From Escherichia coli (GTDB taxonomy: Bacteria; Pseudomonadota; Gammaproteobacteria; Enterobacterales; Enterobacteriaceae), in NCBI RefSeq assembly GCF_003334405.1, contig NZ_QOWM01000009.1: a stretch of DNA of 64,000 bases; one strand, written 5' to 3'. Shown one piece after another: positions 37,085 through 38,943 of this stretch (its first letter is position 1; each line of letters begins with the position of its first letter). A model generated the notes under the pieces. It was not told where the DNA came from. It searched no databases and saw only the letters and a list, made by a program, of their open reading frames with translations. Made by a program: the position numbers and the translations under genes.

Positions 37085-37573
37085 TTACTTCACCCGCGCC
37101 ATATAATATGCATCGACATATTCACCATTACGCAATGCGTACTTCTTACCAGTCCCTTCAATTTCAAAGCCGTATTTTTTATAGACCTTAATTGCCGGGG
37201 CGTTATCGACAAACACGGTTAGTTCAATGCGATCTACCCGCAACCAGTTGTCGCACATTTCAATCATCTCTCGCATCAGGGCGCTGGCGACGCCGCGGTT
37301 CTTCCAACGAGAGTCGACACAGATACCAAAATCGGCAACATGACTGCGGCGTGGGCGCTGTTGCACGTCAATGGTGAGATGGCCCACGACGTCTCCATCA
37401 ATACAGGCGACGAGTTGCTTGATGCCGGGACGATCGGCGAGTCGCTCCTGCCACATATGATCGGAAGGATGAGGCACCTGTAGTGTGTTGCAATACACCT
37501 CCGGCTGGGCGTGAATCTGCCTGATGGCCTCGTAATCCCGTGTTTCTGCGTGGCGTATTACTATCTCACTCAT
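37085..37573 (-). CDS. yhhY: GNAT-family N-acetyltransferase
   Basis: Start at MSEIVIRHAETRDYEAIRQIH (162 aa) with AAGGA RBS upstream; acetyl-CoA binding motif RWKNRGVASALMRE. Confidence 0.85.
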   Translation of the reverse strand: MSEIVIRHAETRDYEAIRQIHAQPEVYCNTLQVPHPSDHMWQERLADRPGIKQLVACIDGDVVGHLTIDVQQRPRRSHVADFGICVDSRWKNRGVASALMREMIEMCDNWLRVDRIELTVFVDNAPAIKVYKKYGFEIEGTGKKYALRNGEYVDAYYMARVK

Positions 37574-37657
37574 TCCTTTGTCCTCTTTGGGGTAAATGTC
37601 CCTTTCAACATCATTGACTTTCAAATGCGAGTCAAATGCATTTTTTTGCAAAAAGTG

Positions 37658-37694
37658 TTGGACAAGTGCGAATGAGAATGATTATTATTGTCTC
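37658..37694 (+). promoter_or_regulatory. ryhB promoter with overlapping Fur box
   Basis: gcgaatgagaatgattattattgtc matches Fur box consensus GATAATGATAATCATTATC; -35-like ttggaca and -10-like tattat just upstream of the RyhB 5' end. Confidence 0.75.
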
Positions 37695-37785
37695 GCGATC
37701 AGGAAGACCCTCGCGGAGAACCTGAAAGCACGACATTGCTCACATTGCTTCCAGTATTACTTAGCCAGCCGGGTGCTGGCTTTTT
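37695..37785 (+). ncRNA. ryhB: RyhB small RNA (Fur-repressed, Hfq-dependent iron-sparing sRNA)
   Basis: GCGATCAGGAAGACCCTCGCGGAGAACCTGAAAGCACGACATTGCTCACATTGCTTCCAGTATTACTTAGCCAGCCGGGTGCTGGCTTTT matches RyhB as I recall it, with terminal GC stem (gccagccgggtgctggc) and U-tract; between yhhY and yhhX as in K-12. Confidence 0.88.
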
Positions 37786-37905
37786 TTTTGATCTTTCGTT
37801 CTCAATTTATCCACGGGAGTGCTTGTGTTCGTTATGCGCACTCCAGTAGGAACCACGTCCGCTTTGCGCTAAGGTGTAAATAACCACCTTAAAAAGGACG
37901 AAATC

Positions 37906-38943
37906 ATGGTCATCAACTGCGCCTTTATTGGCTTCGGCAAAAGCACCACCCGTTACCATCTGCCGTATGTACTTAACCGCAAGGATAGCTGGCATGTCGC
38001 GCATATTTTTCGTCGCCATGCGAAGCCGGAAGAACAGGCTCCCATTTATTCCCATATCCATTTCACCAGCGATCTCGACGAAGTACTAAACGATCCCGAT
38101 GTTAAGCTGGTTGTTGTCTGCACCCACGCGGACAGCCATTTCGAGTACGCGAAACGCGCGCTGGAAGCCGGGAAAAATGTGCTGGTCGAAAAACCGTTCA
38201 CTCCGACACTTGCGCAGGCGAAAGAGCTGTTTGCGTTGGCGAAAAGCAAAGGGCTGACCGTCACGCCGTATCAGAATCGTCGCTTTGACTCCTGCTTCCT
38301 GACAGCGAAAAAAGCGATTGAAAGTGGCAAGTTGGGAGAGATTGTTGAAGTGGAAAGCCATTTTGACTATTACCGCCCGGTGGCAGAAACCAAACCTGGG
38401 CTGCCGCAGGATGGCGCGTTTTATGGCCTTGGTGTGCATACGATGGACCAGATTATTTCTCTGTTCGGTCGCCCGGATCACGTCGCTTATGACATCCGCA
38501 GCCTGCGTAATAAAGCCAATCCTGACGACACCTTTGAAGCGCAACTGTTTTATGGCGACCTGAAAGCCATCGTCAAAACCAGCCATCTGGTGAAAATCGA
38601 TTATCCGAAATTTATCGTTCACGGTAAGAAAGGTTCGTTTATTAAATACGGTATCGACCAGCAGGAAACCAGCCTGAAGGCTAATATTATGCCGGGCGAA
38701 CCGGGATTCGCAGCGGATGATTCGGTCGGTGTGCTGGAGTATGTCAATGACGAGGGCGTGACGGTCAGAGAAGAGATGAAGCCGGAGATGGGCGATTACG
38801 GGCGCGTTTATGATGCGTTGTATCAAACCATCACCCACGGTGCGCCAAATTACGTCAAGGAATCTGAAGTTCTTACCAATCTGGAAATCCTTGAACGCGG
38901 ATTTGAGCAAGCCTCTCCCTCCACAGTAACTCTCGCTAAGTAA
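37906..38943 (+). CDS. yhhX: Gfo/Idh/MocA-family NAD(P)-dependent oxidoreductase
   Basis: 345 aa; N-terminal Rossmann motif INCAFIGFGKSTTRYHLP. Confidence 0.85.
   Translation: MVINCAFIGFGKSTTRYHLPYVLNRKDSWHVAHIFRRHAKPEEQAPIYSHIHFTSDLDEVLNDPDVKLVVVCTHADSHFEYAKRALEAGKNVLVEKPFTPTLAQAKELFALAKSKGLTVTPYQNRRFDSCFLTAKKAIESGKLGEIVEVESHFDYYRPVAETKPGLPQDGAFYGLGVHTMDQIISLFGRPDHVAYDIRSLRNKANPDDTFEAQLFYGDLKAIVKTSHLVKIDYPKFIVHGKKGSFIKYGIDQQETSLKANIMPGEPGFAADDSVGVLEYVNDEGVTVREEMKPEMGDYGRVYDALYQTITHGAPNYVKESEVLTNLEILERGFEQASPSTVTLAK

Follow-up and report, generated by a model that had tools for sequence, protein, structure and literature searches.

Chromosomal ryhB, the gene of a Fur-repressed iron-sparing small RNA, in the yhhY-yhhX interval of an Escherichia coli contig

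The intergenic region between yhhY and yhhX in a 64 kb stretch of Escherichia coli DNA (hereafter the window) almost certainly carries chromosomal ryhB, the gene of a Fur-repressed small RNA (sRNA) of the Hfq type that spares iron. Judged by its sequence, this copy is already known: it is the same as the textbook K-12 gene and holds nothing new. Since 2001-2002 RyhB has counted among the textbook small RNAs of bacteria, and its length is usually given as about 90 nt. As a discovery the locus carries no weight; its practical use is that of a positive control for the reading of raw sequence, in which the original prediction, made from the letters of the window, correctly named the RNA and placed its start, terminator and operator with an error of at most one base.

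The alignment of positions 37570-37910 (341 nt, the whole yhhY-yhhX intergenic region) with the K-12 MG1655 genome revealed 100% identity in every aligned column, and a 25-kb query (25000-49999) was 100% identical to several E. coli chromosomes. The K-12 MG1655 record lists the ncRNA ryhB (b4451, "small regulatory RNA RyhB") at 3580922..3581016, between yhhX and yhhY, and the transfer of these coordinates to the window defined the sRNA interval given in Table 1, which begins with GCGATCAGGAAGACC at 37695. The original prediction had RyhB starting at 37695, and the annotated K-12 start falls exactly on this base. An Rfam scan of the full window against all 4227 families at gathering thresholds returned RF00057 (RyhB) as its sole match, at 37724-37788 on the plus strand (83.1 bits against a gathering score of 55, E = 3.6e-14, model positions 1-67 of 67), and this match was reproduced with permissive filters. 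An Rfam search had been named in advance as the check on the RyhB assignment, and the model does match the interval. Since RF00057 spans only the 3' 65 nt of RyhB and leaves the 5' 29 nt outside, the 5' boundary rests on identity to the K-12 annotation and not on Rfam.

Table 1. Coordinates of ryhB, its control elements and its neighbours in the window
Feature	Position	Strand	Basis
ryhB -35-like hexamer TGGACA	37659-37664	+	Promoter consensus scan
Fur box (operator)	37674-37692		16/19 match to GATAATGATAATCATTATC; identical to K-12
ryhB -10 hexamer TATTAT	37683-37688	+	Promoter consensus scan
RyhB sRNA	37695-37789	+	Identity to K-12 b4451 (95 nt annotated there) and RF00057 match
5' stem-loop (GCGA...UCGC), predicted	37695-37714	+	MFE fold pairs nt 1-4 with nt 17-20; outside the Rfam model
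Core pairing ("seed") stretch GACAUUGCU	37732-37740	+	RyhB nt 38-46, complementary to sodB -4..+5
Tandem 9-nt units ACATTGCTC + ACATTGCTT forming the target-pairing region	37733-37750	+	Repeat seen in the sequence
Proposed RyhP ORF (doubtful), ATT start, IAHIASSIT*	37735-37764	+	Translation
A/U-rich single-stranded stretch AGUAUUACUU	37753-37762	+	Unpaired in the Rfam consensus structure and the MFE fold
Rho-independent terminator	37763-37789	+	Terminator scan, Rfam structure line, sequence reading
yhhX (Gfo/Idh/MocA-type oxidoreductase), downstream	37906-38943	+	NCBIfam PRK10206 equivalog, 780 bits
yhhY (GNAT N-acetyltransferase), divergent upstream neighbour	37085-37573	-	NCBIfam PRK10140 equivalog, 373 bits; yhhY in matching genomes
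yhhZ/tssD, 392 aa	35670-36848	-	N-terminal Hcp/TssD domain
yrhA, intact, 164 aa, YrhA family	35179-35673	-	NF038335, 122 bits

A consensus scan of 37400-38000 found a sole promoter-like site, at 37659-37688, although the scan is a crude filter that a weak yhhX promoter could escape. This sigma-70-like promoter matches 10 of 12 consensus positions, with an 18-nt spacer between its hexamers, and the last base of the -10 element lies 7 nt upstream of the annotated RyhB 5' end. The 19-bp Fur consensus was matched at 16 of 19 positions on the minus strand, which was the lone match at three or fewer mismatches in the 64 kb on both strands; dinucleotide-preserving shuffles contained such a match in 0 of 100 cases. 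The box overlaps the -10 hexamer and ends 3 nt before the transcription start, a position that corresponds to the geometry expected for repression by promoter occlusion. A string quoted in the original prediction as a good Fur box overlapping the -10, gcgaatgagaatgattattattgtc, is found at 37668-37692, and the Fur match inside it indeed overlaps TATTAT.

For the K-12 gene, Chen et al. (2007) scored a cluster of Fur sites at 25.2 bits, with its centre at -15 relative to ryhB, and verified by gel shift that Fur binds there; they also note that this fragment had already come out of an in vivo Fur-titration selection, at that time assigned to yhhX (PMC2189734). Because the window is identical to K-12 at the Fur box, these published binding results transfer to it directly. 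At least in its main text, a Fur ChIP-seq study does not list a ryhB peak (PMC4676285). The stretch from the yhhY start codon to the ryhB -35 element also contains a direct repeat of TCAAATGC, at 37621-37628 and 37632-37639 with 11 bp spacing, which could serve a regulator of the divergent yhhY promoter or could be due to chance.

At the other end of the gene, the terminator hairpin (AGCCAGC-CGGGT-GCTGGCT, 37763-37781) comprises seven base pairs, five of them G-C, and is followed by a run of nine T (37781-37789), the first of which is also part of the stem. The original prediction of a GC hairpin and U-tract at 37763-37790 was right on both elements and set the end one base too far, as base 37790 is a G and the true end is 37789. 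The long 3' U-tail of this terminator is preceded by the unpaired A/U-rich stretch AGUAUUACUU, the sequence arrangement sought in an Hfq module. The stretch together with the terminator hairpin and U-tail would form the expected Hfq-binding module, as described for the identical RNA (PMC4509938). The MFE fold of RyhB was no more stable than that of shuffled sequence (z = -0.57). Hfq-dependent sRNAs usually lack distinctive fold stability. Single-sequence folding performed no better than chance and is therefore not counted as evidence.

The conservation of the locus was assessed by a megablast search of 37300-38100 (801 bp) against 5426 complete E. coli genomes. The ryhB region was found in 5425 of them, always on the chromosome, and one genome gave no match to this query. 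The promoter and sRNA (138 nt) were at least 99% identical in 5395 of the 5425 genomes, as compared to 2698 genomes for the 801 bp including the flanks. In an alignment of six sequences from lineages spread over the match identity range of 92.8-100%, variation affected 1 of 95 columns in RyhB (the length of the T-run) and 1 of 37 in the promoter and operator (position -1), alongside 7 of 116 in the RyhB-yhhX spacer, 9 of 195 in the yhhX part and 72 of 274 in the yhhY 5' part (37300-37573). These counts identify the RyhB gene as the most constrained segment of its neighbourhood.

These data also bear on the reading that the RF00057 match is a chance resemblance or an unexpressed dead relic, which we regard as barely conceivable. 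An undistinctive fold energy would fit it, but the E value of the covariance-model match, the complete identity to an experimentally characterised K-12 gene (promoter, operator and terminator included) and the near-invariance of the locus in 5425 genomes while its flanks vary together exclude it.

Several observations concern the surroundings of the gene. The yhhY gene is unusually variable among E. coli lineages, and this variation may come mostly from one divergent allele, that of strain 06-00048 (92.8% identity overall). In NZ_AP042519.1, an IS1A insertion splits yhhX just downstream of ryhB, and in NZ_CP145714.1 the match starts only at query base 296, with the yhhY side missing. The PGAP-annotated RefSeq records that we inspected list no feature under the ryhB match, in line with the earlier expectation that ORF-based annotation would miss the gene; the sole ORF over ryhB is a mechanical 95-aa frame (37596-37883), an artefact.

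RyhB had been placed between yhhY and yhhX, next to a toxin islet, and both neighbours were recovered as NCBIfam equivalogs flanking the gene (Table 1). The yhhX-yhhY position is the mark of the core enterobacterial ryhB orthologue and is occupied both here and in K-12; Klebsiella ryhB likewise lies between yhhX and yhhY (PMC3415461). In the annotated map of one chromosome that is 100% identical over the 25-kb query, the gene order is ugp, ggt, yrhB, yrhD, yrhA, tssD (yhhZ), yhhY, an interval with no feature, yhhX, yhhW and gntRKU. The islet of yhhZ/tssD and yrhA begins 237 bp beyond yhhY. YhhZ/TssD is an Hcp tube-protein domain (residues 1-147; TIGR03344, 118 bits; Pfam T6SS_HCP, 2.5e-11) fused to a C-terminal extension, in which only weak matches were detected, to HNH at residues 322-343 (E = 0.013) and to colicin-DNase (E = 1.9); the K-12 annotation reads "putative endonuclease YhhZ". 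T6SS genes are not annotated in the ~50 kb of the matching genome's annotation (window ~12600-62400). The yrhA gene is intact in the window but an IS1E-interrupted pseudogene in K-12 MG1655; the window therefore does not come from K-12, for all the identity of the ryhB region. The label of a toxin islet is reasonable for yhhZ/tssD and yrhA.

We further examined the pairing of RyhB with sodB, using the K-12 copy of the target, as the sodB of this strain lies outside the window. The seed stretch is a 9-nt perfect Watson-Crick complement of AGCAAUGUC, across the AUG of K-12 sodB, and RyhB nt 38-46 with sodB -4..+5 is the published pairing site. In a longest-perfect-complement scan with RyhB shuffles, a 9-nt sodB complement was reached by 46 of 2000 shuffles, and by itself the match is thus only modestly unlikely. 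A duplex fold between the entire RyhB RNA and an 86-nt piece of the sodB leader was discarded: it produced an unrealistic 70-nt duplex and performed no better than 43 of 500 shuffles. Within the pairing region, the 8-mer ACATTGCT occurs twice, at RyhB nt 39-46 and nt 48-55, in keeping with the two tandem units of Table 1. The clinical strain E. coli 23AR0151 (NZ_CP195448.1) carries a third tandem copy of ACATTGCTC (three units versus two), which lengthens the seed loop by 9 nt and leaves open the frame of the proposed peptide RyhP. This third unit shows that the RyhB seed is an imperfect tandem duplication able to expand.

In the accepted pathway, Fe2+-Fur represses ryhB, and under iron starvation RyhB accumulates and pairs with about 20 iron-protein mRNAs, blocking their translation and, aided by Hfq, bringing in the RNase E degradosome (PMC8544716). 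Mapped onto the window, Fe2+-Fur would sit on the operator at 37674-37692 when iron is plentiful and, as the operator overlaps the -10, would block RNA polymerase. When iron is scarce, Fur would leave, transcription would start at 37695 and stop at the hairpin and U-tract (37763-37789), and an RNA of about 90-95 nt would result. Hfq would bind this RNA via the 3' hairpin and poly-U together with the A/U-rich stretch upstream of the hairpin, and the single-stranded core (37724-37757) would pair with mRNAs of non-essential proteins that use iron, at their translation-initiation regions; in the case of sodB, nt 38-46 would pair across the start codon. Such pairing would block ribosome binding and recruit RNase E and the degradosome, and both RyhB and its target mRNA would be destroyed, sparing iron. 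In this scheme, the K-12 identity, the anatomy of the promoter, operator and terminator, the family membership, the sodB complementarity and the conservation in E. coli were observed directly; for Fur binding, the dependence on Hfq, decay through RNase E and expression in response to iron, the basis is published work on the identical sequence, and all four would be expected to apply here.

The pairing region also coincides with a small ORF. Based on EHEC ribosome profiling, Neuhaus et al. (2017) proposed that a nonapeptide, MAHIASSIT (RyhP), is translated from an ATT start (PMC5331693), in which case ryhB would be a dual-function gene whose translation product, (M)AHIASSIT from the ATT at 37735, has its own effect under iron limitation. 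The ten-codon frame from ATT to TAG (nine codons plus stop) is intact at 37735-37764, and both the EHEC ribosome footprints and a competitive-growth effect of the plasmid-expressed peptide speak for its translation (PMC5331693). Nevertheless, we consider this improbable: the start is non-canonical, RyhB contains no ATG, and the proposed Shine-Dalgarno sequence (ggagaa) is weak and precedes the start by some 19 nt. The frame overlies both the region that pairs with targets and the Hfq site, and its conservation is already explained by the function of these regions as RNA. In addition, the support comes from overexpression in a single study (PMC5331693), and the third 9-nt unit of 23AR0151, which keeps the frame, would change the peptide. 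Even if translated, RyhP would add to the sRNA reading of ryhB and not displace it.

A second extension concerns the downstream neighbour. The Fur-controlled promoter at 37659-37688 may at least partly be that of yhhX itself, RyhB being the terminated 5' product of a ryhB-yhhX unit in which readthrough of the terminator would make YhhX inducible by iron starvation; we give this a real chance, somewhat short of even. It is a reading that adds to the sRNA function of RyhB and does not replace it. The yhhX gene starts 117 nt downstream of ryhB on the same strand, and 37400-38000 contains no second promoter-like site, but the crude scan behind that result could overlook a weak yhhX promoter. The original assignment of the Fur site to yhhX by in vivo selection (PMC2189734) fits the readthrough model, as does a 2022 study in which the yhhX transcript went up on iron depletion but no longer did so once ryhB had been deleted together with the promoter (PMC8896160). 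Morita et al. found that the ryhB terminator is often read through on plasmids, and less so under stress, yet they state that ryhB-yhhX co-transcription "has not been shown experimentally", and termination is reportedly enhanced under exactly the inducing condition (PMC4509938).

The spacer between ryhB and yhhX contains two potential hairpins. In the yhhX leader, we found an inverted repeat at 37813-37847 (ACGGGAGTGC/GCACTCCAGT, 15-nt loop) and another at 37870-37891 (TAAGGTG/CACCTTA, 8-nt loop), which ends just before the yhhX ribosome-binding site; neither is followed by a T-run. Divergent strains vary at the left arm in the first repeat and at loop positions 37884 and 37886 in the second. 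As these strains show no compensatory change, the repeats are not proposed as functional elements, and this absence counts against readthrough too. A bolder form of the model, in which the ryhB terminator is a conditional attenuator, ryhB-yhhX a Fur-controlled readthrough operon, and YhhX, possibly with RyhP, the protein arm of the iron-starvation response, is put forward tentatively and is rather unlikely. The readthrough and RyhP ideas are already in print, and neither is established (PMC8896160, PMC4509938, PMC5331693).

Among known systems, the possible ryhB-yhhX readthrough and RyhP have a parallel in SgrS-setA/SgrT, where the sRNA depends on Hfq, has a leaky terminator and contains a small ORF, and the gene downstream is transcribed along with it (PMC4509938). 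For SgrS, co-transcription and the peptide are experimentally established, whereas for RyhB neither is. A permissive Rfam scan of 37400-38100, including the yhhX leader and the other strand, yielded beyond RyhB only a sub-threshold match to RF00444 (PrrF) at 37659-37790 on the plus strand (21.3 bits against a gathering score of 90, E = 0.37). We rejected this match, which most likely reflects chance or a shared composition of Fur box and terminator. The sRNAs PrrF1 and PrrF2 of Pseudomonas aeruginosa are repressed by Fur and in turn down-regulate the mRNAs of sodB and other iron proteins; they are functional analogues of RyhB and, by the family test, not homologous to it.

The second RyhB copies of enterobacteria (ryhB-2 in K. 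pneumoniae; RyhB-2, also IsrE or RfrB, in Salmonella) share the Rfam family and the conserved core pairing sequence with RyhB of the window and, like it, are Fur-regulated. Unlike these copies, which sit elsewhere in their genomes (for Klebsiella ryhB-2, see PMC3415461), the copy in the window is the syntenic yhhX-yhhY orthologue. Its closest counterpart is RyhB of K-12 MG1655 (ryhB, b4451; also SraI): the two do not differ at any base of the sRNA, its promoter, Fur box and terminator or of the intergenic region as a whole, and the flanking genes and their orientation match those of the window.
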